From an uncultured Clostridium sp. (GTDB lineage: Bacteria > Bacillota_I > Bacilli_A > RF39 > UBA660), in NCBI GenBank assembly GCA_902492325.1, contig CABULC010000002.1, forward strand, positions 262,411 to 326,410: a DNA stretch of 64,000 bases, given 5' to 3'. Numbering within the stretch: the stretch's first letter is position 1; every line of letters begins with the position of its first letter. The position numbers and the translations under genes were made by a program. A model generated the notes under the pieces. The model was not told where the DNA came from and searched no databases. It worked only from the letters and a program-made list of their open reading frames with translations. Shown piece by piece: positions 2 through 14,615 of the stretch.

Positions 2-232
2 ATAAATGATATAAAAAATTTAAATAATCTAAAAACAAATACTTTACAAATAGGTCAAGTTTTAAAAATACCAGGGTCAACAAATTATAATACTTACACA
101 GTGAAAAAAGGAGATTCACTTTGGAAAATAGCAGATAAGTACGGAACAACAGTTAATAAATTAATGACGATTAATAATCTTACATCAACAACGTTACAGA
201 TAGGACAAAGTATTTTAATTCCAACAAACTAA
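2..232 (+). CDS. LysM repeat protein, 3' end of gene (5' truncated by window edge)
   Basis: Frame-2 translation gives ...TYTVKKGDSLWKIADKYGTTVNKLMTINNLTSTTLQIGQSILIPTN*, two LysM-type repeats, TAA at 230-232. Confidence 0.7.
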   Translation: MNDIKNLNNLKTNTLQIGQVLKIPGSTNYNTYTVKKGDSLWKIADKYGTTVNKLMTINNLTSTTLQIGQSILIPTN

Positions 233-233
233 T

Positions 234-261
234 AGTATATAACTTTATATACTATTTTTTA
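234..261 (+). terminator. Rho-independent terminator after LysM gene
   Basis: Perfect 8-bp stem agtatata/tatatact, 4-nt loop, followed by atttttt. Confidence 0.6.
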
Positions 262-265
262 GTGC

Positions 266-307
266 ATAAAAAAAAGAACAACGTGCTATGAAGCATTAAT
301 TGTTCTT
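266..307 (-). terminator. Terminator of the minus-strand AAA operon
   Basis: 8-bp stem (aagaacaa/ttgttctt) spanning the AAA gene stop, followed on the minus strand by an 8-T run. Confidence 0.45.
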
Positions 308-1773
308 CCTTTTCCCCATTGTCTAATTTTATCAATCTTTTCAGGATTAATCTTACTAATTGAATAACATTTATCAAAACATTCTAATAAGTAAGCACGC
401 GTTAATTTAATATTATCAGCCACAATATTATATGAAATATCTCTTATAGCTGATTCTATATCTGATGATGCAAATCCTTCGCTTTTAGTAATTAATTCAC
501 TCATTAGAGTATCATCAACTTTAACTCCTAAGTATTTATTTAAATACATTGAAATTATTTCTTTTCTTTCATTATCATTTGGTAAATCTACAAAGAACAT
601 TTCATCAAATCTACCTTTTCTAAGTAACTCAGCAGGTAAGTTATCAACATTATTTGCTGTTGCTACTACAAATACTTCCTTTTGACATTCTTGTAACCAA
701 AATAGAAATTGTCCAATCATTCTTGAAGTTACGCCACTTGATTCATTAACACCCGCTAATCCTTTTTCAATTTCATCAATCCATAGAACACAAGGAGCAA
801 CATGTTCTGCAGTTTTTAGTGCATTTTTAAATTGTTCTTCAGTTTGTCCAACATACATTCCTTGTACAGTTGCTAAGTCAAGCAAGAATAGTGGAAGATT
901 CCAACTTTTAGATATTGCTTTAGCAGTTAAACTTTTTCCACAACCAGGAACACCGACTACTAAAATACCTCTTGGAGGTTTAATTCCTCTCTTTATTAGT
1001 TTTTCTTTATTTTCAACATCTAATAACTTTCTTTTTGAGCTAAGCCACTTTTTAAGATTATTAAGTCCACCATAGACAACATTATCAGTTTCAATTTTTT
1101 CAAGGCCTTCCATATTAGAAAACATCTTACTTTTGGCAAACTTAAGTTCAGTTAAATCACCTTTAGTAATACTTCTCTTAGCAATTAGAACTGATATAAC
1201 ATTTTTAATTTCAGCTTCACTCAATCCTAACAATATAACTGATGCTTCTTTAAAGTTACTATCATCCCATTCTATTGGAAATTGACCATTATATTTATCA
1301 ATAAATCTATGTAATAAATCATATATTTCTTTTTCATTAGGAAAACTTAAATCAATATTCATACCAAGTTTCTTTAAATTTGGCCAAATACTTTTATCAC
1401 TAATAACAATTATAGAACAAGATTTTTCTTCACAACTATTAACAACATCATATAGAAATCTTGTAACTAAATTATCTTCATTTAAGTTATCAACATCACT
1501 TAGTAAATAAGTAACATTCTTTTTATCTTTTATATCATTACTTATAAATGATAATATACCACCTAATGTTTTTTCATTACTAACAATTTCATTATTTTGA
1601 AGACTATACATACCTTTAGACATAGAGTGAACATAAATAGTAGCATTTAATTCACTATTTATTTCTTTCAACATAGATAAAATTCTATTTTTTTCCATTG
1701 TGTTGATTACTATAAATGGAATTCTAGCATGTAAATAACTATCTAGTTTTTCTTTTACTTCTTCGTAATTCAT
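286..1773 (-). CDS. Classic-clade AAA+ ATPase. C-terminal active AAA domain (Walker A GVPGCGKS, Walker B VLWIDEIE, second region of homology ATANNVDNLPAELLRKGRFDE). N-terminal ~250 aa looks like a degenerate, nucleotide-motif-less AAA-like domain
   Basis: ORF-track protein motifs; GGAGG RBS 7 nt upstream; ATGA start/stop overlap with upstream gene. Confidence 0.85.
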   Translation of the reverse strand: MNYEEVKEKLDSYLHARIPFIVINTMEKNRILSMLKEINSELNATIYVHSMSKGMYSLQNNEIVSNEKTLGGILSFISNDIKDKKNVTYLLSDVDNLNEDNLVTRFLYDVVNSCEEKSCSIIVISDKSIWPNLKKLGMNIDLSFPNEKEIYDLLHRFIDKYNGQFPIEWDDSNFKEASVILLGLSEAEIKNVISVLIAKRSITKGDLTELKFAKSKMFSNMEGLEKIETDNVVYGGLNNLKKWLSSKRKLLDVENKEKLIKRGIKPPRGILVVGVPGCGKSLTAKAISKSWNLPLFLLDLATVQGMYVGQTEEQFKNALKTAEHVAPCVLWIDEIEKGLAGVNESSGVTSRMIGQFLFWLQECQKEVFVVATANNVDNLPAELLRKGRFDEMFFVDLPNDNERKEIISMYLNKYLGVKVDDTLMSELITKSEGFASSDIESAIRDISYNIVADNIKLTRAYLLECFDKCYSISKINPEKIDKIRQWGKGRTINAS

Positions 1774-2207
1774 TCATTTTCCTCCAAATAAGCATTATTT
1801 ATAGTATTCATTATAAAAGTATCATCAGTAGAATAATTTTTCTTTATTTCATCTAATATTCTATTATTAGATTCCATAATTTTTCTACCTAATTGTACTT
1901 GATTTTCTTCACGAACCAGTTTAGAACTTGCTATTAAGAAATCTAAAGATACTTCATCAGTATATTCTTTAAATTCAATTGAAAATCTATTATCATCAAC
2001 ACCTATACTAGGAAGTTTATCTAATAAAACTCTATATGCATTATTAAGTCTATTTTGAATTAATAAAGATAAATGATCTATAAATCTAAAATATCTATCT
2101 CCAGCTAAGTCGACTTCTAAGCTATTAATTCTTTCAACAATACTTTCACTTCTAGGTTCGTCAGCTAAAGATTCTAAAAAATTAACTAAATCATAATATG
2201 ATATCAT
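1770..2207 (-). CDS. Hypothetical helical 145-aa protein, third gene of AAA operon
   Basis: ORF translationally coupled at both ends (ATGA overlaps); no recognisable motif. Confidence 0.6.
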   Translation of the reverse strand: MISYYDLVNFLESLADEPRSESIVERINSLEVDLAGDRYFRFIDHLSLLIQNRLNNAYRVLLDKLPSIGVDDNRFSIEFKEYTDEVSLDFLIASSKLVREENQVQLGRKIMESNNRILDEIKKNYSTDDTFIMNTINNAYLEENE

Positions 2208-2383
2208 AATTCACCTCTATCAACAGTATCAAATGGAGGTTCTAAATCCCAATCAGGAATCTTAATCATTTCATTTTCATCTTCTTTTTTTTCATTTTTT
2301 TTCTTTTTGTTATTTTCATCATTTTTAACATTTAAATTCTCATGATTATCAAGTTCAGTTTTTAATTCTTCATCTTTATTCAT
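2204..2383 (-). CDS. Small 59-aa K/E/N/D-rich ORF not in ORF track (MNKDEELKTELDNHENLNVKNDENNKKKKNEKKEDENEMIKIPDWDLEPPFDTVDRGEL)
   Basis: Hand translation of minus strand. AGGAGG RBS (rc of 2391-2400) 7 nt before ATG at 2383. Stop TGA overlaps ATG of the 145-aa gene. Fills the only gap in the operon. Confidence 0.45.
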   Translation of the reverse strand: MNKDEELKTELDNHENLNVKNDENNKKKKNEKKEDENEMIKIPDWDLEPPFDTVDRGEL

Positions 2384-2394
2384 AAAATAACCTC

Positions 2395-4080
2395 CTACTT
2401 AAAATTAATATAATTGTTTTTATCAAATGAATTAATATAATTTATTAGTTCATTTTTATATTTTAAATTACGTTTACATATAAATTTTATATCAACAATT
2501 TCTGCTATAGTGTTATTAAGTTCAAATAAGTATTTTTTAACAGTATCATTATATTCATTAATGATATCTTGTCTATTCTTAGATATTTCATATAAGAAAT
2601 ACATAAGCATTCCACCGCCAACAAATATAACAATAATACCTAAATATAATTTTATGAACGCTAAGATCAAACCAACAACAATAAATATCGCACAATATAC
2701 AGTTTTTGGAGAAATATATTGTTGTTCCTGAGAATCTGCTTCGAAAGGCTTTTTAACATATTCTGTTAAAGAATCTTGTAATTCTTTTTCATTACTTCCA
2801 TCTTTTGTAGTTCCAGTCCATTCATTAATTTTTATTTGAATGTCATTATCGTTAGATTCATCCTCATTACCAAATACTTCATCAAAACCTTTGACAATAT
2901 TTTGTTTCGTTAATGAAATAGCTAGTTTTTTTGTAGATAATGAAACATCATCTCTATTTAATATTATATTTGTAAGCTCATTGCCAAAGTTATTTTTAAT
3001 ATTTAATGTGTTATTATATATTTCATATTTTTTATTAGCTTCTTCAACATTTCCTTTGCATTCTATAATTAATTTATTTTTTAATATAGCTTTTCTAAGA
3101 TCAGCTTCATTTTCTTCATAACTAAATAATAAATTATTTAAAAGTTCATCTATACTTTTTTCTTTTTGATCATCTTTATCTAATAATCTTAAGAATTTAG
3201 CATAAGCATTGTTATAAGAGTAGGAAAGAGCTAATTTATTTTTTAGTTTATCAAAATCTTTAACATAGTCGGCAGAAAATGGATATTCACTATTTTCTAC
3301 TACATCAATAGTATCACTAAAAAACTCTCTCCATCTTTCTATTTGATAGTTATTAACATTATCATTACTACTAAGTTTATTACACCAATCATCTATATAA
3401 GAAAGAATCAAATCAGTCATTTTAATACTATAAGCATCATTAACAAGTGATTCTAAAACATTTATAATATCATTATCCATACTATTAGGATTTTGTGTGT
3501 CTAAATATCTTTTTAACCATTTAAGAGCAGTATCATTTCTATTAAGTCTTAGATGTATCAAACAAAAAAGTAATGATGTTTTACTATCATTTAAACTAAG
3601 AGCTTTATTTAGTGCTTTACGAGCTAATTTTCTTTCATTTCTAAACCATGCACATAATGCGACTAATGCATAAGATAAATAATAGTCTGGTGTATTTAAT
3701 AAAGATTGTTCACTTTGAGTAAGCAAAGTATTTTTCTTTATAGTATTTAAATCCATACTATTTAAAATACCATTTATCTTTCTACGAATTAAATCATAAT
3801 GTCCATATTTTTTATTTAGTTCATTTTCTTTTAATAATATTTCATTTTGAGCATTAGATACTAGTGAAGAACCTCTAACTTCTAACATAAAATCTTTTAT
3901 TTCTTGTTCTAAAGATTTAACATTTGTCTTAAGAGTATCTACTTGACTATTAAAATCATTAATTTGCCCGTTAATATCAACAACGTCACCAGCAACACTA
4001 GACATGTTTTCAGATAAAACTTTTAAACTTTTTTCTAGTGCATCCATATCTCTTTTTTGTATAGCAGTTATTGTTGTCAT
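2395..4080 (-). CDS. 561-aa membrane-associated protein. N-terminal coiled coil, TPR-like helical middle region, two-helix TM hairpin (residues ~455-500) and ~60-aa C-terminal tail. First gene of AAA operon
   Basis: ORF with GAGGTGG RBS; hydrophobic segment VYCAIFIVVGLILAFIKLYLGIIVIFVGGGMLMYFLY; stop TAG lies inside RBS of next gene. Confidence 0.7.
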   Translation of the reverse strand: MTTITAIQKRDMDALEKSLKVLSENMSSVAGDVVDINGQINDFNSQVDTLKTNVKSLEQEIKDFMLEVRGSSLVSNAQNEILLKENELNKKYGHYDLIRRKINGILNSMDLNTIKKNTLLTQSEQSLLNTPDYYLSYALVALCAWFRNERKLARKALNKALSLNDSKTSLLFCLIHLRLNRNDTALKWLKRYLDTQNPNSMDNDIINVLESLVNDAYSIKMTDLILSYIDDWCNKLSSNDNVNNYQIERWREFFSDTIDVVENSEYPFSADYVKDFDKLKNKLALSYSYNNAYAKFLRLLDKDDQKEKSIDELLNNLLFSYEENEADLRKAILKNKLIIECKGNVEEANKKYEIYNNTLNIKNNFGNELTNIILNRDDVSLSTKKLAISLTKQNIVKGFDEVFGNEDESNDNDIQIKINEWTGTTKDGSNEKELQDSLTEYVKKPFEADSQEQQYISPKTVYCAIFIVVGLILAFIKLYLGIIVIFVGGGMLMYFLYEISKNRQDIINEYNDTVKKYLFELNNTIAEIVDIKFICKRNLKYKNELINYINSFDKNNYINFK

Positions 4081-4150
4081 GAAACCACCTCTTATTCTAT
4101 TAAAATTATAACATATTAAAAAGTAAAGTGATAGTTATTTTATTGAAAAG

Positions 4151-4579
4151 TTAGTAAAGTTCATTACATACACCAGGGTCAGGAGCATAAAAACAATGTC
4201 CTTTATATCTTCCTGTATTTCTTTGATTAAACCATGTACCTTTACATTCTTCATTTTTCTTAGGTCCATAAAACCATAGTGCATTAGTGGCAGGGTAGTA
4301 ATATTCTCCTTTTAATACTCTTTTAGCAAGTTCTTTTTCTTTTGTAGTAGCACTTCCACTATTAAAAAGACTACTATTTGTTCCAACAAAACCACCTGGA
4401 TTTTGATAAACTACATCAGTAATACTTCTTATATTTTTAAAGTCTAAACAATTAGCTATAGCTCTATTAACTATAACATTTCCAACCATAAGCATGGCAA
4501 GATCACCTTCGGCAAGTGCTTCGGCTCTCATTAGTCTAGCACATAAATCTAATTCTTTAGTTGAATATTTAATAAGCAT
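4151..4579 (-). CDS. SleB/CwlJ-family cell wall hydrolase (spore cortex-lytic-type domain). True start at MLIKYS, not the track start that runs antisense through tRNA-Trp
   Basis: Motifs LCARLMRAEALAEGDLAMLMVGNVIVNRA and VVYQNPGGF; AGGTGA RBS before ATG at 4579. Confidence 0.75.
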   Translation of the reverse strand: MLIKYSTKELDLCARLMRAEALAEGDLAMLMVGNVIVNRAIANCLDFKNIRSITDVVYQNPGGFVGTNSSLFNSGSATTKEKELAKRVLKGEYYYPATNALWFYGPKKNEECKGTWFNQRNTGRYKGHCFYAPDPGVCNELY

Positions 4580-4674
4580 AAAATCACCTAATATATTGTA
4601 TGCAATAACAAAAAATATTGATTTGTTAAAATTTATATAGTATAATAATGTTGCTTTACAAAAAAGTGACACGT

Positions 4675-4749
4675 AGGGGTATGGTGTCAGTGGTAGCATG
4701 CCGGTCTCCAAAACCGTTGGGGAGGGTTCGAGTCCTTCTACCCCTGCCA
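4675..4749 (+). tRNA. trnW: tRNA-Trp (anticodon CCA), 3' CCA encoded
   Basis: Cloverleaf by eye: acceptor aggggta/tacccct, anticodon loop cuCCAaa, T-arm ggttcgagtcc; near-identical to Bacillus tRNA-Trp. Confidence 0.9.
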
Positions 4750-4761
4750 TATAAGATTAAT

Positions 4762-4785
4762 AACTCTAAATAAGAGTTTTTTTAT
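4762..4785 (+). terminator. Terminator after tRNA-Trp
   Basis: aactct-aaata-agagtt hairpin followed by tttttt. Confidence 0.7.
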
Positions 4786-4836
4786 TGCAAAAATTATTAT
4801 AACATCTCATAATCTATGCATAATTTGAACAAAAAA

Positions 4837-4855
4837 AACACGACCAACGTGTTTT
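4837..4855 (-). terminator. Terminator of lipoprotein gene (bidirectional hairpin)
   Basis: aacacg-accaa-cgtgtt hairpin flanked by A-run upstream and T-run downstream. Confidence 0.6.
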
Positions 4856-4860
4856 AATTT

Positions 4861-5355
4861 TTATTCGCAAGTAGCGCCCATTTGAGTATACATAGATTTG
4901 ATACCATCAATTGTAATCTTATTATTCTTAACATATGATTTCATAGTTGGTTGATCTTTAATAAGTTTTGCAATATCAAGTTCATCATAATTAATTGTTA
5001 CCTCAGAAGTTAATCCTTGACTAGTCTTATTAACACTGTAAGTATATCCGCCATAAGCTTTATTCATATTAGTATAAGTTTCAGTAACATAATTTTCAAA
5101 GTAATCAATTATTTCTGATTTATCAGATTTTACAACTTCAGTAGAATCAACTTTAGAAACTATATTATCTTTATAAGTTGCTACATAAGTTGCATCAATA
5201 CTATATCCAGTAGCAGTATCACTTGTATGAAGAGTACAAGTCATTTTTTGTTCTACAGGATCATTATTTGTATTACCTCCATTATTAACATTACTTTTAG
5301 AATTACAACCTGTTAAAAGTAATAAAACGACAGCTATTGAAGCTAATTTCTTCAT
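4861..5355 (-). CDS. Lipoprotein (lipobox LLTGC), function unknown
   Basis: Signal peptide MKKLASIAVVLLLLTGC; AGGAGG RBS. Confidence 0.6.
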   Translation of the reverse strand: MKKLASIAVVLLLLTGCNSKSNVNNGGNTNNDPVEQKMTCTLHTSDTATGYSIDATYVATYKDNIVSKVDSTEVVKSDKSEIIDYFENYVTETYTNMNKAYGGYTYSVNKTSQGLTSEVTINYDELDIAKLIKDQPTMKSYVKNNKITIDGIKSMYTQMGATCE

Positions 5356-5480
5356 AAATCCTCCTATCTTTATAGATTAATTATATTATGAACTATTTAA
5401 AAAAGAAATACTTTTTTCACTAAATATACATTAAGTTTTCACATGAATAATTATTTTCTATAAGTCATAGAATTAGTATA

Positions 5481-5909
5481 ATGAAAAACAAAATAAAAGA
5501 AAAATTCGTAGTATTTATGAGTAGTACAAAAGATTATACAGATACATTTTCACTTGAAGAAATAGAGTCGGGGAAAGCTTTAAGCATAGTTTCATACTTA
5601 GTGCCATTAGTACCTTTTATATTATCTAAAAAAAATAACTATGTAAGATTTCATACATTAAATGGTATGAATATATTATTTACATATTTAATTTTTTTAA
5701 TTATAAAAAGAACATTATCATATATTTTTGGAACACCTTGTGATTTAGTAAGTGGACTAAAGTGCATAATATTACCTATAAGCCTTAGAATATTCTTTGC
5801 ATTAATAAATATGATATTTAGTTTTATAGTATTATATGGTGTTTTAAATGTATGCAATAACAAAGCAAAAGAAATACCTGTTATAAGTAAAATAAAATTA
5901 TTCAAATAG
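5481..5909 (+). CDS. Small polytopic membrane protein (DUF4870/Tic20-like, tentative)
   Basis: Hydrophobic ORF with several predicted TM helices. Confidence 0.45.
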   Translation: MKNKIKEKFVVFMSSTKDYTDTFSLEEIESGKALSIVSYLVPLVPFILSKKNNYVRFHTLNGMNILFTYLIFLIIKRTLSYIFGTPCDLVSGLKCIILPISLRIFFALINMIFSFIVLYGVLNVCNNKAKEIPVISKIKLFK

Positions 5910-5956
5910 ACAAAAATCATAATATATGTTAAAATAAAGCGCACTAAAGGGTAATT

Positions 5957-7570
5957 ATGAATAAAACAGAGAAAATAGATATCGGAAAAATTGTTTTAAA
6001 TGAAGAGACAAATAAAAAGTTTTTGGATTTCGATAACAATCGAGATATTTTTTATTTTGGAAATAAAGAAGATTATTATTGTAAAGTATACAATTATACA
6101 AGAAAACTAGTTTATAAATCAAGAAATGCAGGAGAAATGATTTTAAATAAATCTTTTGTATCGAATATAATAAGAATATTAAATCACGATGTTCTTATCG
6201 CTAATAAATCAAAAGAAATGGGGTATCTAGAATTATTACACTATTTAATAACTTATCAAGATACTATTAACATTATAAAATTAGGTGGTTATTGGCCATA
6301 TACTGAAGAAGACTCAAATATAAGAAAAGAAGCAATAGAACTTTTAGAAAAACAAAATAATGAAATAGAAGAATTTTTAAAATCAATAGACTATGATAAT
6401 AAAATAAAAGAATTACTTAGTAAGTATAAAGAATATACAACATATAAAGGAGAACTACCTGATGATATATTTTTAGAATTAGATTTGATATTCACAACTG
6501 CTCATAACATACCTAAAGAATATGTTGATTTATATATGAAAAACGTTACTAGCTTTAATAAATCTCTTTCATTAGAAGCTTTTAGAAATGTTATTACAAG
6601 TTTAATTAGTAATTATGCTAAAGAACATGGAACATATTGTTATACTGAAATATGCAAATTAGATTATGGAACATTAGGAAGTTATGATAATCACGTAATT
6701 ACCCTTTCAACATCAAGTTTTAATTCATATTTTTTAGGTCATTCATCAAAGAAAATAGAATTGTTCGACACAATATTCCATGAGTTAATTCATTTGTTAC
6801 AAGATAAGATATATAGATCAAAGTTTATTACTTATGATTATATATTAATGCTTAAAGATTTTTTACTAACAGGTACAATAGAGGAATCATATTTAAAAAG
6901 AAACTATATGAGTTTAACACCAGAAATAGATGCTAGAAAAAATGGCCATTTAGAAACAGATAGTTACCTTCTTTCTTTAGGAATCGCATCACGAACAAAT
7001 ACATTTGAAAAAAATCTATTAGACGAAAGAAGACATGGAACTGATTTTAGATATTACGAAGGAAAAGAATACACAGTAGATACTCTATTAGACGAAAAAA
7101 TGCCTCATGTAGTTGAAGAATTTAAAAAGAATTATAAAATCGATATATTTGAGGAATATCCTGTTATGAAATTAATGTTTCATAATGATGGAAGAAGAAA
7201 AACAACATTAGAATTGTTAAAAGAAAGAGAATCTATAGAAGATAGAGAAATTATTTCGCAAATAGATGAGATTCTAATAAGAAGAAAAATGTCAAAAGAG
7301 AATTGTGAAAAAGATTTAAAAGAGCTTATATTAGATAGTACATTATCGATTGATAAAACAGAATATATTAGAAGACTTAACATGTTATTAACAGCAAAAG
7401 AAAGAAAAAAGATACTAATAAAATTAAAATCACTTAGTTTATTATTAAAAGATTTAGGAAGAAGTTTCTTAATATTCTTAGGTGAACTAGAGGATATAGA
7501 AGCAAGAATTAATGATGAAAAAATAGATATGATTTTATCTAAAAAGATAAATAAAGAATCTAAAAATTGA
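5957..7570 (+). CDS. Hypothetical 537-aa protein with HExxH motif (FHELIHLLQD); possible zincin-like metallopeptidase
   Basis: Long ORF; motif only. Confidence 0.55.
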   Translation: MNKTEKIDIGKIVLNEETNKKFLDFDNNRDIFYFGNKEDYYCKVYNYTRKLVYKSRNAGEMILNKSFVSNIIRILNHDVLIANKSKEMGYLELLHYLITYQDTINIIKLGGYWPYTEEDSNIRKEAIELLEKQNNEIEEFLKSIDYDNKIKELLSKYKEYTTYKGELPDDIFLELDLIFTTAHNIPKEYVDLYMKNVTSFNKSLSLEAFRNVITSLISNYAKEHGTYCYTEICKLDYGTLGSYDNHVITLSTSSFNSYFLGHSSKKIELFDTIFHELIHLLQDKIYRSKFITYDYILMLKDFLLTGTIEESYLKRNYMSLTPEIDARKNGHLETDSYLLSLGIASRTNTFEKNLLDERRHGTDFRYYEGKEYTVDTLLDEKMPHVVEEFKKNYKIDIFEEYPVMKLMFHNDGRRKTTLELLKERESIEDREIISQIDEILIRRKMSKENCEKDLKELILDSTLSIDKTEYIRRLNMLLTAKERKKILIKLKSLSLLLKDLGRSFLIFLGELEDIEARINDEKIDMILSKKINKESKN

Positions 7571-7595
7571 CAAAACATTATAAATAGTATATAAT
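7567..7595 (+). promoter_or_regulatory. Consensus sigma-A-type promoter TTGACA-17-TATAAT
   Basis: ttgaca at 7567-7572, exactly 17-nt spacer, tataat at 7590-7595. Confidence 0.6.
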
Positions 7596-7601
7596 CATGT
7601 G

Positions 7602-7745
7602 CAAGTGAGGGGATATAAGATATAAATATATTGAGCTGTCCCGGGGAAACCTACACGAACTTTTATAAAGTACGGAGTCGCTGTTAAGTAGTGGATTTCG
7701 TGCTTTTTTAATTCTTTACGTTATCCATCTATTAGAAAGGAGGGA
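7602..7745 (+). promoter_or_regulatory. ~140-nt structured 5' leader with attenuator-like hairpin (cacgaa...ttcgtg + ctttttta) ahead of the RBS. Candidate riboswitch or attenuator of unknown class
   Basis: 6-bp long-range inverted repeat at 7654-7659 and 7697-7702 followed by T-run; AAGGAGGG RBS at 7737. Confidence 0.3.
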
Positions 7746-7752
7746 ATATTAT

Positions 7753-8307
7753 ATGGTAGGAGCATCAAGAATGCCAGACTTTTTTGCCATGGGAACTATT
7801 GAATCTGAGTTATTAACAGAAGTCCAAAAAAGACTTAAATATAAAAATGGAAACATTAGTGAAATGTCAAAAAGTGAACAATTAAAAATGGAAACACTAG
7901 ACTTATTAGAAAGTCTTGGTTATCCAATGGATGAATTTGGAACATATTTATATAAAGATGTAATTATGTCTATTAGAGAGCAAATTGGTGTAGTTGAAAC
8001 AAGAGAAGATGTTATTGAAGCTTCAGCAGTTTTAGAAGAAGCTAAATCAGCATTCTCACAACTATACTTCAATTTAGCAAGAAATGAAAGAGATATTGGA
8101 GTAAAAGAATATCATAGAATTCTATCTAGATCATTATCAAAGATTGATTATAAAAAGGCATCACCAGAACTATTATACAAAGTATATGGTAATTTCCCTT
8201 TTGAGATGGACTATGGCGAAAATGCTTTTGCTCTAGCAAACTTTTTAAATAGACAAGTAGATAAACCTTTATGTAGAAAACTAACAAATTCACCTAGTAT
8301 TTATTAA
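7753..8307 (+). CDS. Stand-alone Spo0A C-terminal (DNA-binding) domain-like protein; no receiver domain
   Basis: Alignment from memory to B. subtilis Spo0A C-domain: [21 protein letters not shown] ~ [47 protein letters not shown] ~ [35 protein letters not shown] ~ PTNSEFIAMVADKL. Confidence 0.5.
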   Translation: [184 protein letters not shown]

Positions 8308-8321
8308 GATTAGGTGATACT

Positions 8322-8350
8322 ATTAGAGTAACCTAGCGTTACTCTATTTT
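8322..8350 (+). terminator. Terminator
   Basis: gagtaac-ctagc-gttactc hairpin followed by tatttttt. Confidence 0.6.
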
Positions 8351-8368
8351 TTATAGGAGGATGAAGTT

Positions 8369-9349
8369 ATGAGTATAATAGAAGTTAAAAACTTATCAAA
8401 AACATTCGAAGTTAAATTAAAAGAAAAAGGTTTAAAAGGAAGTCTTAAGTCAATATTTAAACCTAAGTATAAAACTATTAAAGCTGTTAAGAATATAAGT
8501 TTCAATATAGAAAAGGGTGAAGTTATAGCATTCATAGGACCAAATGGGGCAGGTAAAAGTACTACTATCAAGATGTTAACAGGAATACTTTATAAAGATA
8601 AAGGAACTATTAATATAGATGGTTTAGATCCAGAAAAAGATAGAAAAAAACTTGCTAATGAAATAGGTACTGTATTTGGTCAAAAAGAACAACTATGGAT
8701 GCATCTAACTCCATATGATAACTTTAAATTTTTCGGAGCTATTTATGACATACCAGAATCAATAGTTGAAAAGAAAATAGAAGAATTTAAAGTATTATTT
8801 GAACTAGATGAATTTATAAATACACCAGTACGTAATCTAAGTTTAGGTCAAAGAATACGTTGTGAGATAGTAGCATCACTAATACATGAACCAAAAATAT
8901 TATTCTTAGATGAACCAACTATAGGTCTAGACCCAGTAGTAAAAGAAAATATTCGTACACTTATTAAAAGAATGAACAAAGAATATAAAACAACAATATT
9001 CTTAACAAGTCACGATGTATCAGATATAGAAAAACTATGTAAAAGAGTTATCATAATAAATAATGGTGCTTTAGTACTAGATGATTCAATGGAAAATTTA
9101 AAATACCATTACCTACACAAAAAGATATTAGAAGCTAAAATGAAAGAAAAAGTAAATCTAAATGATGAAGAAGGTATAACTATATTAAAAGATAAAGGAT
9201 ATAACTTGAAAATAGAAGTAGATACTAGTAAACGTAGTATAAGTGATGCTATAAAATTATTAAATCCAGATAATATAATAGATATTAATATATCAAATAC
9301 GCCTCTTGAAGATATAATAAGCGAAATATATAAAAAAGAGGATAAATAA
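8369..9349 (+). CDS. ABC transporter ATP-binding protein (ABC-2 type)
   Basis: Walker A GPNGAGKST, signature LSLGQRIR, Walker B ILFLDEPT; AGGAGG RBS. Confidence 0.9.
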   Translation: MSIIEVKNLSKTFEVKLKEKGLKGSLKSIFKPKYKTIKAVKNISFNIEKGEVIAFIGPNGAGKSTTIKMLTGILYKDKGTINIDGLDPEKDRKKLANEIGTVFGQKEQLWMHLTPYDNFKFFGAIYDIPESIVEKKIEEFKVLFELDEFINTPVRNLSLGQRIRCEIVASLIHEPKILFLDEPTIGLDPVVKENIRTLIKRMNKEYKTTIFLTSHDVSDIEKLCKRVIIINNGALVLDDSMENLKYHYLHKKILEAKMKEKVNLNDEEGITILKDKGYNLKIEVDTSKRSISDAIKLLNPDNIIDINISNTPLEDIISEIYKKEDK

Positions 9350-10140
9350 TGAAAAAGTATTTATTTATATTTAAAACAGAAATAATAAATAGTTTACAAT
9401 ATATGTTTAACTTATTATCAGGCTTTATAGCATACATAATAATGATATATGTATTTTTATGCTTATGGAAATATATGTATAGTGACCCAGCATCTCTTAT
9501 AAATGGTTATAATCTAAATCAAATGATATGGTATATAATTATTACTGAGATATTATGGATGAGCCTAGGTGGTAAAAAAATATGTCGTAAGATAACTAAT
9601 GATGTAAAAAATGGTAACATCGCATATAACATAAATAAACCTTATAACTATATCTTATATAATCTATCTAGCAATTTAGGAAGTATATTCATAAAGTTTA
9701 TAGTATTTACAGTACTAGCTATGATATTAGGATTTATATTTTTAGGAACATTTCCTCAGTTAAATATATTATCTATTTTAGCAGTACTACTTACAAGCAT
9801 TTTAGCAACTACAATAAGTATATTAATAATGATAGGTATAGGTTTATTCTCATTTATAATAGAAGATTCAACACCATTATACTGGGTATATAGTAAATTT
9901 ATATTAGTCTTAGGAACAATATTTCCAATAGAATTCTTTAGTGGAATATTAAGAACAATATTAAAATATAGTCCAATATATGTTGTATCTTATGGACCAG
10001 CTAAATTATTTGTAAACTTTAGTACAAGTGAATTTATAGCAATAATTATTTCACAATTAATATACTTAGTTATATCTTATTTAATAGCTACATTTATATA
10101 CAAGAAAGGGGTGAAAAAACTAAATGTTAACGGAGGTTAA
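9349..10140 (+). CDS. ABC-2 family permease
   Basis: 6-TM hydrophobic ORF, start overlaps ATPase stop. Confidence 0.7.
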   Translation: MKKYLFIFKTEIINSLQYMFNLLSGFIAYIIMIYVFLCLWKYMYSDPASLINGYNLNQMIWYIIITEILWMSLGGKKICRKITNDVKNGNIAYNINKPYNYILYNLSSNLGSIFIKFIVFTVLAMILGFIFLGTFPQLNILSILAVLLTSILATTISILIMIGIGLFSFIIEDSTPLYWVYSKFILVLGTIFPIEFFSGILRTILKYSPIYVVSYGPAKLFVNFSTSEFIAIIISQLIYLVISYLIATFIYKKGVKKLNVNGG

Positions 10141-10918
10141 AAATCAATTAAAAGTAAATTATTTATCTATAAAGTATGGTCTTATGAGAGAAATGGTAAA
10201 TAAGTTTTCATTCTTAGCAAATATAATCTTTATGATTATAAATAACTCATGTTTTATCATACAATGGGTAGTACTTTATTCATTAAAAGATAACATTGGT
10301 GGATATACTTTTAAACAAATGTTATTACTTTGGGGGATCGCAGCAAGTACCTTCGGAGTTTCAAGATTCTTCTTTAAGAAAGCATTTAGTTTATCAGAAA
10401 CAATAAATACTGGTAAATTAGATGCGTTCTTAGTACAGCCTAAAAATGTATTATTAAGTGCAATAACTACTGACGTAGAAGTTTCAGCTATAGGAGACTT
10501 AATCTATGGATATGTAATACTTATCATATATGGAATAACTTTAAAAAACTTTTTATTGTTTACAATATTTACTATATTAGGTGGCCTAATAATAGCTTGC
10601 GTTTCAGTAATAGCAAATAGTCTATCATTTTGGTTTAACATGACAGATGTTTTAGCAGACACAATAAATAACATGATGATAATATTTGGTACATACCCTA
10701 AAGATATATTTAATGGAATAGTAAAGATAATTCTTTATACAATAGTTCCAGTTGGTATCGCAAACTATATACCAATAGACTTAATAATAAACTTTAATAT
10801 ATATGGATTCTTATTAGTATTCACAGTAACAATATTTTTAGTAGTTTTATCATTCTATATATTTAACAAAGGATTAAAAAGATACTCTTCAAGTAACTTG
10901 ATGAGTTCAAGAATATAA
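10124..10918 (+). CDS. ABC-2 family permease (second subunit)
   Basis: Hydrophobic ORF, overlapping previous gene; AGGGGTGA RBS. Confidence 0.7.
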   Translation: MLTEVKNQLKVNYLSIKYGLMREMVNKFSFLANIIFMIINNSCFIIQWVVLYSLKDNIGGYTFKQMLLLWGIAASTFGVSRFFFKKAFSLSETINTGKLDAFLVQPKNVLLSAITTDVEVSAIGDLIYGYVILIIYGITLKNFLLFTIFTILGGLIIACVSVIANSLSFWFNMTDVLADTINNMMIIFGTYPKDIFNGIVKIILYTIVPVGIANYIPIDLIINFNIYGFLLVFTVTIFLVVLSFYIFNKGLKRYSSSNLMSSRI

Positions 10919-10959
10919 TTAATATTAAAGATGAAAAAAGCAATATTAATGTAAAGTAA

Positions 10960-10995
10960 AGGACTAATTATGTAAATTAGTTCTTTTTATGTAAA
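10960..10995 (+). terminator. Terminator of ABC operon
   Basis: ggactaatt-atgta-aattagttc hairpin followed by ttttt. Confidence 0.6.
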
Positions 10996-11060
10996 GAAAA
11001 CCTTGTATTTAATTCTAAAAAAAATATCAATATGATATAATTAATGAGGTGAAAACATAT

Positions 11061-11801
11061 ATGCAAATGTTAGTTAAAGGAGTAAATGTTAATTATACAT
11101 TTTATGATAATAGTAGTAGTATAAACTTAGTTTATCTACACGGCTGGGGCCAAAATATTGAAATGATGATGCCAATAGCAAAACCTTTTATCAAGAAATA
11201 TAATGTATTAATTATTGATTTTCCAGGCTTTGGTGATAGTGATGAACCTAAAGAAGTTTGGAGTGTTTTTGACTATGCAGAAATGGTTAATGAAATGGTT
11301 AAAAAATTAAACATGAAAAATCCTATTGTTATAGGACACTCTTTTGGTGGCAAAATTGCATTAATATATGGTTATAAATATAAACCTAGAAAAGTAGTTG
11401 TACTAGCAAGTCCATATAAACAAGTTATAACAAAACCAACATTAAAAATGAAATTATTAAAACAAGCAAAAAAAATACCAGGACTTGGTAAACTAGAAAA
11501 TTTTGTTAAGAAACATGTTGGTTCAACTGATTATAGAAATGCTAGCGAAATGATGAGAAAAGTATTAGTTGCTCATGTTAATACAGATATTACTGAAGAT
11601 TTAAAGAAAATAAAATGTCCAGTATTAGGTATATGGGGAACTAATGATGCAGCTGTTGATATTGAAGATGGAAGAGAGTTAGAAAACTATATTCCAAATT
11701 ATGGTTTAGTTGAATATCCAGGATGTACACACTACGCATATTTAGAAAATCTAGGTCAAACAATTAGTGTACTTAATAATTTTATTGGAAGTGAGGAGTA
11801 A
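11061..11801 (+). CDS. Alpha/beta hydrolase (esterase/lipase family)
   Basis: Nucleophile elbow GHSFGG, HGWG oxyanion region; start moved to ATG with GAGGTGA RBS. Confidence 0.75.
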   Translation: MQMLVKGVNVNYTFYDNSSSINLVYLHGWGQNIEMMMPIAKPFIKKYNVLIIDFPGFGDSDEPKEVWSVFDYAEMVNEMVKKLNMKNPIVIGHSFGGKIALIYGYKYKPRKVVVLASPYKQVITKPTLKMKLLKQAKKIPGLGKLENFVKKHVGSTDYRNASEMMRKVLVAHVNTDITEDLKKIKCPVLGIWGTNDAAVDIEDGRELENYIPNYGLVEYPGCTHYAYLENLGQTISVLNNFIGSEE

Positions 11802-11802
11802 T

Positions 11803-13401
11803 ATGAGCATTAAAGTATATTTTTTATTAACACTATTAACATATATTTATTATTTAACATACAAATCAAGAAAAGCATTACATATGCTTCAACAAAACTG
11901 GTATAACGATGGCAATAGATATCTAAAATGGGTTAAAACAAATGCTAAAAAAGTATTTATAACATTTGATATGGCATTTATATTATTTTATTTTATGAAG
12001 TTCTTAAATACTAAAGTAACATTAATTATATTTGCAGTATTCTACTTAGTAGTATATTTCTTATATAAAAACAATGCAGTAAAAGAACAATCTAAAAAAC
12101 CATTAGTAGTAACAGCAAGAATTAAAAGACTTTATACTACAATGTTTGTATTGTTAATACTTTGTTTAATACCAATGGTTATACATTTTAATGTTAATAA
12201 CTTGTTTATATATTACTTAATAATTGGTTTATTCTCATATATAAATACAATAGTTATATGGTTATGTAACATTATCAACAAACCGGTAGAGAAAATGGTA
12301 TATCTTCATTATAAAAGACAAGCACAAAGTAAACTTTATAGTATGAATTCTCTTAAAAAAATAGCTGTAACAGGAAGTTATGGAAAAACAAGTACTAAGA
12401 ATGCATTAAATGATATATTAAATGTTAAATATAATTCATTTGCAACGCCTAAGAGTTTCAACACTATGTATGGACTAATAAATGCTATTAACAATTATAT
12501 GGATAAATTTAGTGAAACTTTTGTAGCAGAAATGGGAGCATTCTATAGAGGAGAAATAAAAGAAAAAGCAAACTTTATAAAACCTAAATATGGAATTTTA
12601 ACAATTATTGGAACAGCACACTTAGAAAGTTTTGGTAGTCAGGAAAATATTCAAAAAGCAAAATTTGAATTAATAGATTCACTTCCAGATGATGGAGTCG
12701 CAGTCTTAAATATGGATGATCCATATCAAACAAGTTATAAATTAAAAAGTAAATGCAAAGTAATATGGGTATCAACTAAAAATAAAGATGCTGATGTTTA
12801 TGCAACTGATATAAAACTATCTAACAAAGGAACAACATTTACTTGTATATTTAAAAATACTAAAGAAAAACATACATTTGAAACTAAACTTCTTGGAAGT
12901 GCCAATGTATATAATGTTTTACAAGCAATAGCTATGTCATATGAATTAGGTCTTACTTTAGAACAAATAGCTATCGGAGTAAGAAGAATACAAACTATTG
13001 AACATAGACTTGAACTAAAAAAATACACAGAAAATATTTATATAATAGATGATGCATACAATTCAAACCCAGTTGGTTCTAAAATGGCAGTAGATGTTCT
13101 TAAAATGATGAAAGGTAAAAGAATAATCGTAACACCAGGTATGATAGAACTAGGAGATGAACAATATAGTTCAAACTTCGAATTTGGAAGACAAATAGCT
13201 GGATGTGCAGATGAAGTAATCTTAGTTGGAGAAGAACAAACAAAACCAATTCAAGATGGGCTTAAAAAAGAAAAATATCCTAAATCACAAATACATATTC
13301 TAAATGATGTTAAAGAAGCATTCCCATTAATGAGAAAACTAAGTGACAAAGAAACATATGTATTATTAGAAAATGATTTACCAGATATATTTAATGAATA
13401 G
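11803..13401 (+). CDS. murF: MurF-like UDP-MurNAc-tripeptide:D-Ala-D-Ala ligase whose canonical N-terminal domain is replaced by a ~190-aa five-TM membrane domain
   Basis: Mur ligase P-loop IAVTGSYGKTST and MurF-type C-terminal motif DDAYNSNP; five hydrophobic helices before the ligase core; GAGGAG RBS. Confidence 0.8.
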   Translation: MSIKVYFLLTLLTYIYYLTYKSRKALHMLQQNWYNDGNRYLKWVKTNAKKVFITFDMAFILFYFMKFLNTKVTLIIFAVFYLVVYFLYKNNAVKEQSKKPLVVTARIKRLYTTMFVLLILCLIPMVIHFNVNNLFIYYLIIGLFSYINTIVIWLCNIINKPVEKMVYLHYKRQAQSKLYSMNSLKKIAVTGSYGKTSTKNALNDILNVKYNSFATPKSFNTMYGLINAINNYMDKFSETFVAEMGAFYRGEIKEKANFIKPKYGILTIIGTAHLESFGSQENIQKAKFELIDSLPDDGVAVLNMDDPYQTSYKLKSKCKVIWVSTKNKDADVYATDIKLSNKGTTFTCIFKNTKEKHTFETKLLGSANVYNVLQAIAMSYELGLTLEQIAIGVRRIQTIEHRLELKKYTENIYIIDDAYNSNPVGSKMAVDVLKMMKGKRIIVTPGMIELGDEQYSSNFEFGRQIAGCADEVILVGEEQTKPIQDGLKKEKYPKSQIHILNDVKEAFPLMRKLSDKETYVLLENDLPDIFNE

Positions 13402-13412
13402 GAGAAGTGAAT

Positions 13413-14615
13413 ATGAAAATTAAAGTAGGAGTTATTTATGGTGGAGAAACAGTTGAACATGAAGTAAGTATCATTTCAGCTATTCAAGCAATGAATAATT
13501 TAGATGAAGAAAAATATGAAATAATACCAATATATATATCTAAAGATAGAATATGGTACACAGGACATGTACTAAGAGAAATGGATTTCTATAAACATTT
13601 TGAAGATGAAAAGAAATATGCTAAAGAAGTAACTCTTTGCAAAAAAGGAAAAATGTTTATACTTCAAAAAACCAATGGATTATTTAGAAAAGATATTACA
13701 GATTTAGATATCATTTTACCAGTAGTACATGGTAATAATGTAGAAGATGGAACTTTAGCTGGATTGCTTGATTCGATAGGAATTCCATATGTAGGTTCAC
13801 ACGTATTAGGTTCTGCATTAGGACAAGATAAAGTTGTTATGAAACAAGTAATGTCTTCAGTAGGAATTCCAGTAGTAGATTATACTTGGTTCTTTGATAA
13901 TGAATATCTTGAAAATAAAGATGAAATTCTAGATAAAATTAAAAAACTAGGTTATCCAGTAGTTGTAAAACCAGCAACACTAGGAAGTAGTGTAGGTATA
14001 ACACTAGTACATGATTCTAAAAAGATTGAAGAAGCAATCGAAGAAGCAATTAGTTATGATACTAAAGTAGTAGTAGAAAAAGCTGTAGAAAATTTAGTAG
14101 AAGTAAATGCAAGTGTACTTGGAAACTATGAATATCAAAAAGTAAGTCCATTAGAAGAAGTAATGGGACTTGATGAAATATTAAGTTATGCAGATAAATA
14201 CTTAGGAAACTCTAAAACTAAAGGTGTTAAAACAACTGCATCTAAAGGAATGGCATCTACTAGTAGAATTATTCCAGCAAGAATATCAGATAATTTAACA
14301 AAAGATATTCAAGATACTGCTAAAAATGTATTTAAGACATTAAACTTAAGTGGTGTATGTAGAATAGACTTCTTAATAGATAAAAAAGAAAACAAATTCT
14401 ATGTAAATGAACCAAATACTTGTCCAGGCAGTTTATCATTCTATTTATGGAAAGAAGCAAATGTTAAATATAGAGAACTTCTAGATGAAATGATAAGTAT
14501 TGCTATCAAAGAATACAAAAACAAATCTAAAAAAGTAAAATCATTCAAGAGTAATATCTTAGAAGGATTTAATGGTACTAAAGGTGCAAAAGGTATCAAA
14601 GGATTAAAGAACTAA
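13413..14615 (+). CDS. ddl: D-alanine--D-alanine ligase with omega-loop insertion and ~40-aa K/G-rich C-terminal tail
   Basis: N-terminal signature GGETVEHEVSIISA, ATP-grasp core, omega-loop Tyr retained (SYADKYL). Confidence 0.85.
   Translation: MKIKVGVIYGGETVEHEVSIISAIQAMNNLDEEKYEIIPIYISKDRIWYTGHVLREMDFYKHFEDEKKYAKEVTLCKKGKMFILQKTNGLFRKDITDLDIILPVVHGNNVEDGTLAGLLDSIGIPYVGSHVLGSALGQDKVVMKQVMSSVGIPVVDYTWFFDNEYLENKDEILDKIKKLGYPVVVKPATLGSSVGITLVHDSKKIEEAIEEAISYDTKVVVEKAVENLVEVNASVLGNYEYQKVSPLEEVMGLDEILSYADKYLGNSKTKGVKTTASKGMASTSRIIPARISDNLTKDIQDTAKNVFKTLNLSGVCRIDFLIDKKENKFYVNEPNTCPGSLSFYLWKEANVKYRELLDEMISIAIKEYKNKSKKVKSFKSNILEGFNGTKGAKGIKGLKN

Follow-up and report, generated by a model that had tools for sequence, protein, structure and literature searches.

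We analysed a stretch of DNA of 64,000 nucleotides (nt) from an uncultured Clostridium sp. (contig CABULC010000002.1), the whole of which is called the window below, and in which an earlier note, made from the sequence alone, had described an uncharacterised operon of four genes on the minus strand. The four genes, which we letter A, B, C and D in their 5' to 3' order on that strand, belong to a module present in at least 244 species, and because the identical A-B-C-D order recurs in about 75 independent loci, the arrangement is, as judged from sequence comparison, far beyond chance. D encodes a classic AAA ATPase, and A, B and C encode proteins that match no family that we could name. All four genes are real, as had been proposed; the operon itself, however, is a reduced form of a module that usually has five genes, the fifth of which we call X.

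Gene A (2395..4080) is an open reading frame (ORF) of 561 amino acids (aa), B (2204..2383) one of 59 aa, with a homologous short ORF at the equivalent position in related loci, C (1770..2207) one of 145 aa and D (286..1773) one of 495 aa, all on the minus strand. The tight coupling described in the earlier note can be read directly from the sequence: the TAG stop codon of A (2397-2395) overlaps the Shine-Dalgarno sequence AGGAGG of B (2396-2391), so that both lie within 2391..2397, and AGGAGG is 7 nt upstream of the B start codon ATG (2383), while ATGA overlaps join B to C (2207-2204) and C to D (1773-1770).

The species scan, which took one genome per species, gave 244 confirmed matches. The relatives of the window copy among them are uncultured gut Bacilli and metagenome-assembled genomes (MAGs) labelled 'Mollicutes' and 'Tenericutes', in which A is 84-91% identical; the scan also includes several Clostridium species, Ruminiclostridium hungatei, Lachnospiraceae, Ruminococcus, Paenibacillus and Brachyspira, and, from the Negativicutes, Veillonella, Phascolarctobacterium and Selenomonas. 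Searches with tblastn add Streptococcus oralis, Fusobacterium vincentii, two Komagataeibacter plasmids and a Comamonas megaplasmid, where the RefSeq labels of the genes are only 'hypothetical protein' or 'AAA family ATPase'. We fetched 84 loci (L-numbers designate individual loci here). Where their sequence extends far enough, D lies downstream of A on the same strand, with five exceptions, and in the 427-1822 nt that separate A from D a short variable ORF and a second ORF of about 140-180 aa are always present. The earlier note had made its proposal depend on the four genes staying together in other genomes and on their not belonging to a characterised system; they strongly co-occur across the roughly 75 loci, and no characterised system matches them.

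The four proteins diverge at very different rates. D is 58% identical to the window protein in locus L001 and 44% in Proteobacteria (44-50% across phyla), and in the same two comparisons A is 38% and 25% identical and C 34% and 10-14%. Thousands of homologues of D were found. A, which evolves faster, is less common, with 81 word-index matches, and an exhaustive profile search for it returned 1045 clusters at 50% identity, 498 of them with E <= 1e-30.

The proteins of the module

The active AAA domain of D comprises residues 236-470 (364..1068, minus strand) and was delimited by Pfam, by matches to the sequences of solved structures in the PDB and by invariant alignment columns. PF00004 matches residues 270-396 with an E-value of 2e-29 and 103 bits against a cut-off of 21.2, and the nearest solved structures by sequence are VAT and p97/Cdc48, with the match falling on the D2 domain of VAT and p97 (E about 1e-56 to 1e-49). 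In alignments that span Firmicutes to Proteobacteria, the Walker A motif GVPGCGKS (274-281; consensus GxPGCGKS), the Walker B motif WIDEIE (331-336; consensus DEIEK), the sensor-1 residue N374 and the arginine fingers R385 and R388 of the second region of homology are all invariant, and so is the pore loop Y307-V308-G309 (YVG). The earlier assignment of D to the classic AAA clade, which had been based on the second region of homology and the arginine fingers, is thus upheld: by its Walker motifs, second region of homology, sensor-1 and pore loop, D is a member of that clade.

The N-terminal part of D, residues 1-220 (1114..1773, minus strand), is predicted to be a degenerate AAA-like domain, or pseudo-D1, that lacks Walker motifs. 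Tests with sequence only were weak or empty: an hhalign comparison of the N-terminal with the C-terminal half gave an E-value of 1.3e-3 and a probability of 19%, with the two halves in register between the sensor-1 strand and the lid, and a profile search of the N-terminal half against PDB sequences returned nothing. The question was settled by AlphaFold2 and Foldseek. The AlphaFold2 model of residues 1-210 (pLDDT 85-92) has a beta-alpha-beta core and a helical lid, and Foldseek aligns full-length D on the D1-D2 tandem of p97, Rix7, Drg1/AFG2, NVL and Pex1/6 over 526-588 columns, with TMq up to 0.65 and E about 1e-16. The model thereby confirms the two-tier architecture with a motif-less first domain that the earlier note had suggested, a type II (tandem) layout of two consecutive predicted AAA folds. 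No N-terminal adaptor- or substrate-binding domain was found ahead of D1, since in the model the pseudo-D1 fold begins at residue 3, and D shows no transmembrane (TM) segment, its highest 19-residue hydropathy being 1.64. With the catalytic and pore-loop residues invariant and a type II layout in the model, D would be an active translocase.

Gene A was modelled with a pLDDT of 78.8, and its predicted layout is the one that had been read from the sequence, with a coiled coil, a TPR-like segment and a TM hairpin towards the C-terminus. In the model, a 72-residue helix (40-111) forms the coiled coil and is followed by TPR-like helical repeats at about 134-260, by a beta-hairpin (414-430) that bears the conserved INEWxGxTKDGSNEKEL motif and by the TM hairpin at residues ~458-502 (2575..2709, minus strand). 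The hairpin is supported both by Kyte-Doolittle hydropathy, in which the 19-residue windows exceed 1.8 from residue 455 to 482, and by the model, which places two hydrophobic helices at 458-476 and 478-550. Because only a very short loop separates these helices, both termini of A are predicted to be cytoplasmic; the long C-terminal helix, likewise predicted to be cytoplasmic, bears an invariant AEIVD motif. On reading the sequence no signal peptide was seen, and the basic residues come after the second TM helix. Structure searches with the model of A return TPR proteins only.

The peptide encoded by B is acidic, as first described, and of low complexity, with 19 aspartate and glutamate against 11 lysine and arginine residues, and is presumably disordered. 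Its conserved part is IPDWDLEPPF (2231..2260, minus strand), which follows the family consensus P-x-W-[DSNT]-[LIVM]-x-P-[PL]; this consensus is found near the C-terminus of 68 of the 69 B ORFs, across phyla, and on that basis B is a real, conserved gene. Its N-terminal part can be as short as about 30 residues or as long as 280, and in Clostridia it opens with a zinc ribbon. Outside the closest relatives of the window copy, the motif is usually followed by a basic-hydrophobic tail (..VVRRVRR); the B protein of the window ends in ..DTVDRGEL. Two loci, L031 and L036, have no separate B, and their A protein is 615 aa long and ends in ..PPKWNLEPPYENVRTVIR; such an A-B fusion (a Rosetta-stone link) argues that B would act physically with A.

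C belongs, as far as sequence searches can place it, to an unnamed family of helical proteins. The ORFs at the C position are mutually homologous by jackhmmer in 71 of 73 loci, and alignment of the homologues shows an N-terminal TYxEW motif and R53 to be conserved. We scanned 26 diverse C homologues, singly and as a profile, and no Pfam or PDB family was returned. The earlier statement that A, B and C lack a nameable family was borne out more generally, as Pfam, NCBIfam, PADLOC, PHROGs and PDB sequences gave no significant match to any of the three.

Basic-hydrophobic tails of a similar kind are found at the ends of three proteins of the module: ..VVRRVRR in B of most lineages, ..RRRVLFK in C of Paenibacillus and Proteobacteria, and ..RKVLV in D of loci that carry X. 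Their likeness suggests a shared docking site. The B, C and D proteins of the window have no such tails.

The fifth gene and the variants of the module

Gene X, which most lineages other than the gut Bacilli carry, was identified in 43 loci, where it immediately precedes A or follows D. It encodes a protein of 157-222 aa with a conserved N-terminus, MP(K/R)P, and with C93, H102, H113, D55, E76 and E140 invariant, for which neither Pfam nor PADLOC gave a match. All 43 loci with X encode a D protein with the C-terminal extension 'PIGG...(R/K)(R/K)VLV', and each of the 28 D genes that lack this tail belongs to a locus without X. Clustering left six loci with a tailed D and no X. Of these, L087 does carry X, L038, L080, L081 and L084 are cut off at the limit of the available sequence, and L056 is the sole other tailed locus in which no X was detected. 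By this comparison the presence of X tracks the D tail in every informative locus, and so strict a link suggests that X may be an effector or regulator that docks on the exit face of D. In the window, X was not found by tblastn, and D ends in ...GRTINAS, without the PIGG...RKVLV tail, which marks this copy, by the same sequence comparison, as a reduced variant of the module.

Further reduction has taken place in a sister lineage (L009, L010, L011 and L041), in which A is 53-56% identical to that of the window and the same SleB-like gene lies upstream. There A-B-C is kept and is followed by a hairpin terminator that contains GC pairs, and no D gene or fragment was found after it; in L010 and L041 the end of a LysM-like gene lies downstream. 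It follows that A-B-C can apparently persist without an adjacent D. Since the B proteins of this D-less lineage keep the IPDW[DN]LEPP motif, it also follows that the partner of the motif is probably A or C, rather than D alone. Large serine recombinase genes were observed about 3 kb downstream of the module in L009-L011 (the operon of L009 is at 7001-9400).

Other loci extend the module. In about ten loci of Lachnospiraceae, Ruminococcaceae and related organisms (among them L054, at 2399-13910, L056, L062, L063, L065, L082, L083, L084 and L090), a HerA/DUF87-like ATPase of about 890 aa is encoded upstream of A, most of them also have a protein of about 300 aa without a family upstream of A, and several have a large unrelated protein of 690-1370 aa without a Pfam domain between D and X. 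One IMG/VR contig of GC-rich appearance, L089, carries at 9470-14237 an X-A-...-D version that is flanked by genes for zinc-ribbon proteins and a J-domain protein, and in which B and C were not resolved by a simple ORF caller. In a Ruminococcus MAG (L066, 6965-14406), A is followed by genes for a 686-aa vWA protein and a 1175-aa Tubulin_2 (FtsZl1) protein, which replace B-C-D; this locus connects A-family proteins with the vWA/FtsZl1 operons that Makarova and Koonin described in 2010 (PMC2875224).

Signals, neighbouring genes and mobility

Upstream of A, on the minus strand, are its Shine-Dalgarno sequence AAGAGGTGG (4085..4093) and, 24 nt upstream of this ribosome-binding site, the candidate extended -10 element TGtTATAAT (4105..4113). 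The element proposed in the earlier note is therefore present, but it lies one base away from the position given for it and has no good -35 element. It was not listed by a consensus promoter scan, which requires a -35, and promoter-like sites in that scan were at chance level. The terminator that had been placed after D on the minus strand did not hold up as well. What lies there is an AT-rich inverted repeat (224..263), a weak candidate for a bidirectional terminator, between D and the convergent LysM gene; inside it is a hairpin of 11 base pairs, all A-T, with a folding z-score of -0.9 and a weak U tract next to it on the minus strand, and it was not reported by the terminator scan. Its better T-run is on the plus strand, so the repeat may mainly serve the LysM gene.

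The genes on either side are those that had been named. The LysM gene of the plus strand ends at 232, a Hydrolase_2/SleB-like gene (Pfam E-value 6.8e-16) occupies 4151-4579 on the minus strand, and tRNA-Trp is at 4675-4749 on the plus strand. An ORF of 199 aa for the SleB-like protein (4151-4750, minus strand) overlaps the tRNA-Trp gene of the opposite strand; its homologues are 142 aa long, so that translation probably begins at the ATG at 4579, which gives 142 aa. Further away, at 5957-7570 of the plus strand, there is an ORF of 537 aa with the segment FHELIHLLQD, which contains an HExxH motif and resembles zinc metallopeptidases; this ORF is kept in the closest relatives (cluster 18, about 540 aa, 7 loci).

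The earlier note had hinted at an accessory or defence-island position. This did not agree with a Pfam scan of 125 flanking genes from about 40 non-redundant loci, most of which are metabolic or housekeeping genes (FTHFS, ABC transporters, YidC, DnaA, GatB, PFL and KARI), and among which restriction, abortive-infection, integrase and transposase families were not enriched. In L001-L003 the cassette lies between rpmH and dnaA. Within 2.9 million IMG/VR contigs, A was found on only 2, one of which (L090) adjoins serine recombinases, and it was found in one phage record only. That record, L085 (MK448457.1, Streptococcus satellite phage Javan368), is a computationally delimited satellite prophage in which A, an unannotated B, C, D and X (9674-14257) fill the last 4.6 kb of 14 kb, opposite the integrase end, a position compatible with cargo and with host flank alike. 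Complete X-A-B-C-D modules are present on a 26-kb plasmid of Komagataeibacter nataicola (L086, 1079-5629), with an IS3 transposase gene on one side and a WGR-domain gene and a tyrosine recombinase (integrase) gene on the other, and on the megaplasmid of Comamonas antarctica (L087, 6504-11039). Taken together, these locations indicate that the module moves horizontally, but in a manner unlike typical defence-island cargo.

Lone D-like genes, without A, B or C, were observed in Pseudomonas phages (SM1, PaMx31 and relatives) and in Aeromonas and Rhizobium phages. The proteins of the Pseudomonas and Aeromonas phages are full-length, with 27-28% identity over 94-97% of D, and their genes are beside lysis genes (e.g., NC_041877.1, 23721-25445). 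D also matches phrog_8638 over its full length.

Known systems and a possible mode of action

Pex1/Pex6 (with Pex15/Pex26), p97/Cdc48, NSF, Rix7/NVL and Drg1/AFG2 share with D two stacked AAA-fold tiers, and type II AAA proteins with an inactive first ring resemble it in having the active residues (Walker A and B, pore loop and arginine fingers) in the second tier only. A further likeness to systems of the Pex1/Pex6 type is that the partner is helical and, as predicted for A, membrane-anchored, and that a TPR-like protein would be involved. Unlike p97 and Pex1/6, D has no N-terminal adaptor-binding domain (double-psi barrel), its D1 is fully degenerate, and it is a bacterial protein of only 495 aa. 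Neither A, B nor C has detectable homology to Pex15, to SNAP or SNAREs, or to Ufd1-Npl4, and the working resemblance to Pex1/Pex6, p97 and NSF would be an analogy only.

The other systems that we compared did not account for the module. Within PADLOC 2.0, only the AAA domain of D matches (the IetA, mad8 and TRIP13 models), with no match for A, B, C or X; nor was a known defence system returned for X or, in the extended loci, for the HerA-associated genes and the large variable proteins. The best PADLOC match of D is IetA (1.4e-33), confined to residues 251-465, and the NCBIfam model of IetA (NF042959) gives D 85.9 bits against a cut-off of 510. The IetAS/SgiAT systems are similar in that a classic AAA protein is encoded beside partners without other annotation, but IetA has no pseudo-D1 tier, which D has, and no peptidase domain corresponding to the S8 subtilisin-like protease IetS/SgiT was found in A, B, C or the flanking genes; with a score this far below the cut-off and no IetS, membership of D in IetAS/SgiAT was rejected. 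The FtsH model covers the AAA region of D only, with 95 bits against a cut-off of 600, and D has neither a TM segment nor an M41 protease and is not FtsH. A sporulation or secretion module was discarded, as there are no profile matches and carriers of the cassette include Streptococcus, Veillonella, Brachyspira, Fusobacterium and Proteobacteria, which do not form spores. Nor is D taken for a phage gene, since the D-like genes of phages (about 28% identity) stand alone and A was met only in the phage record and the two contigs described above.

D is also similar, in length and in its C-terminal classic AAA domain, to proteins of the COG0464 'SpoVK/Ycf46/Vps4 family', such as cyanobacterial and plastid Ycf46 (about 500 aa), whose N-terminal half is conserved and lacks motifs. 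D may belong to the Ycf46 family, a possible identity for which papers give the generic COG0464 name only. The gene for Ycf46 lies in a small, stress-induced operon of three genes, the others being uncharacterised (10.1101/2025.07.21.665879). Our searches of the literature did not find the module itself described.

The short conserved peptides of the module have parallels among the tethering peptides of adaptors. The C-terminal XB peptide of SspB, LRVVK, binds ClpX, and docking by a C-terminal tail (the HbYX motif) is an established mode of the proteasomal ATPases. B, like SspB, would be a disordered linker that ends in a conserved peptide, a likeness of pattern only, and D in loci with X and C in some lineages end in (R/K)(R/K)VL(V/F), which recalls the SspB XB and HbYX tails; the D protein of the window lacks this tail.

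The reading that we favour, although we hold it tentatively and give it somewhat less than an even chance, is that the module is an A-B-C assembly at the membrane face that is remodelled by a dedicated unfoldase, D. We infer the binding partners, the action of D on A-B-C and the cellular role as follows. The (X)-A-B-C-D module would act at the cytoplasmic face of the membrane, the window locus being its reduced four-gene form. A would be a hairpin-anchored scaffold with a coiled coil and TPR-like repeats, a fold that typically binds peptides; B would be a disordered peptide whose C-terminal P-x-W-D-L-x-P-P docks onto A, C or both; and C would be a small helical subunit of the A-B-C assembly. 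D, as a soluble unfoldase resembling p97 and Pex1/6, whose D1-like tier is inactive and whose active D2 tier bears the YVG pore loop, would be recruited to A-B-C and would thread a component of it, or a client held by the TPR-like repeats, to disassemble, extract or reset. In the cell, the module may maintain a membrane-associated structure or respond to stress, rather than serve in classical phage defence. That A-B-C is kept in L009-L011 and L041, where D is absent, is consistent with a core assembly whose remodeller is dispensable, and the slow evolution of D beside fast-evolving A and C is expected of an enzyme that acts on lineage-specific partners. Several observations weigh against this proposal, as they are also typical of conflict systems: the plasmid copies, the adjacent serine recombinases, the satellite-prophage record, and the subset of loci joined to a HerA-like ATPase and large variable proteins.

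The same observations would also fit an anti-phage or abortive-infection system, in which A would be a membrane-disrupting effector that D checks or activates and B and C would serve as sensor or adaptor. This is the most plausible of the alternatives, though in itself unlikely, and a defence role is possible but weakly supported. The patchy distribution across phyla, while D stays 44-50% identical, suggests horizontal transfer, and copies of the module are found on the Komagataeibacter plasmid with its IS3 transposase and integrase genes, on the Comamonas megaplasmid, at the cargo end of the Javan368 record and beside the serine recombinases of L090; some Clostridia add the HerA-like ATPase and hypervariable proteins of 700-1370 aa, the top PADLOC match of D is IetA, and A, B and C evolve fast. 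However, no PADLOC model matches A, B, C or X, the match to IetA is confined to the AAA domain and no IetS protease accompanies it, the flanking genes are mostly housekeeping ones, and A is all but absent from the IMG/VR contigs. Synteny is, moreover, stable within lineages of gut Bacilli (e.g., rpmH-dnaA in L001-L003), and the clean loss of D with A-B-C kept speaks against D as an antitoxin for A, so that a toxin-antitoxin pair of this kind is disfavoured.

Membrane remodelling of the ESCRT-III/Vps4 or cytoskeletal type (division, vesicles or repair), with A and C polymerising and D recycling them, seems to us improbable. Its logic resembles that of a membrane polymer with a dedicated classic AAA disassembly factor, and Vps4/CdvC and ESCRT-III are indeed similar to the module in that a classic AAA protein is encoded beside small helical and membrane-associated proteins and that partners carry short C-terminal motifs; the NCBIfam CdvC model matches the AAA domain of D (5e-23), and in L066 the A gene precedes vWA and FtsZl1 genes, the FtsZl1/Tubulin_2 family being predicted to act in membrane remodelling (PMC2875224). 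Yet D has no MIT domain, its N-terminal half being an AAA-like alpha/beta fold by AlphaFold2 and Foldseek, which led us to reject an identity with Vps4/CdvC; no Pfam match to Snf7 or PspA_IM30 was obtained for A or for the 26 C homologues, even at E<=1, and the link to tubulins is a single locus. Slightly less probable still is AAA-dependent processing or proteolysis, in which a substrate unfolded by D would be passed on to a tail-docked X, the window copy being a degenerate remnant. The strict pairing of X with tailed D, the invariant cysteine, histidine and acidic residues of X and the precedent of HbYX tail docking are in its favour, but X has no database match, a peptidase fold for it is purely hypothetical, and in our reading the spacing of its conserved cysteine and histidines differs from that of known papain or NlpC/P60 enzymes. 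Whole lineages, including that of the window, keep A-B-C-D without X, so X is not required for the core function, and for the window copy this explanation does not hold as it stands.

In the biology of eukaryotic organelles, classic AAA unfoldases that work with dedicated membrane partners have a central place, as with p97 in endoplasmic-reticulum-associated degradation, Pex1/6, NSF, Msp1 and Vps4, and to our knowledge few such pairs are defined in bacteria, FtsH apart. The fold of D is known, and so is the type of machine, an AAA unfoldase with dedicated adaptors; what is new is the module and its partners. We consider it close to an even chance that X-A-B-C-D is a distinct, undescribed machine that spans phyla, either one in which an unfoldase is recruited through short peptides to extract or disassemble a membrane assembly, or a conflict system. 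If so, it would be a bacterial counterpart, in logic and not in ancestry, of the eukaryotic AAA systems of extraction and disassembly. The module is compact, it is carried by human-gut Firmicutes, oral streptococci, Brachyspira, Fusobacterium and proteobacterial plasmids, and three or four of its proteins match no family. Experimental handles that make the function of the module directly testable are the conserved motif of B, the fusion of B to A, the pairing of X with the D tail and the natural variants without D or without X, and a role in membrane upkeep, stress response or defence, once established, would name several protein families.

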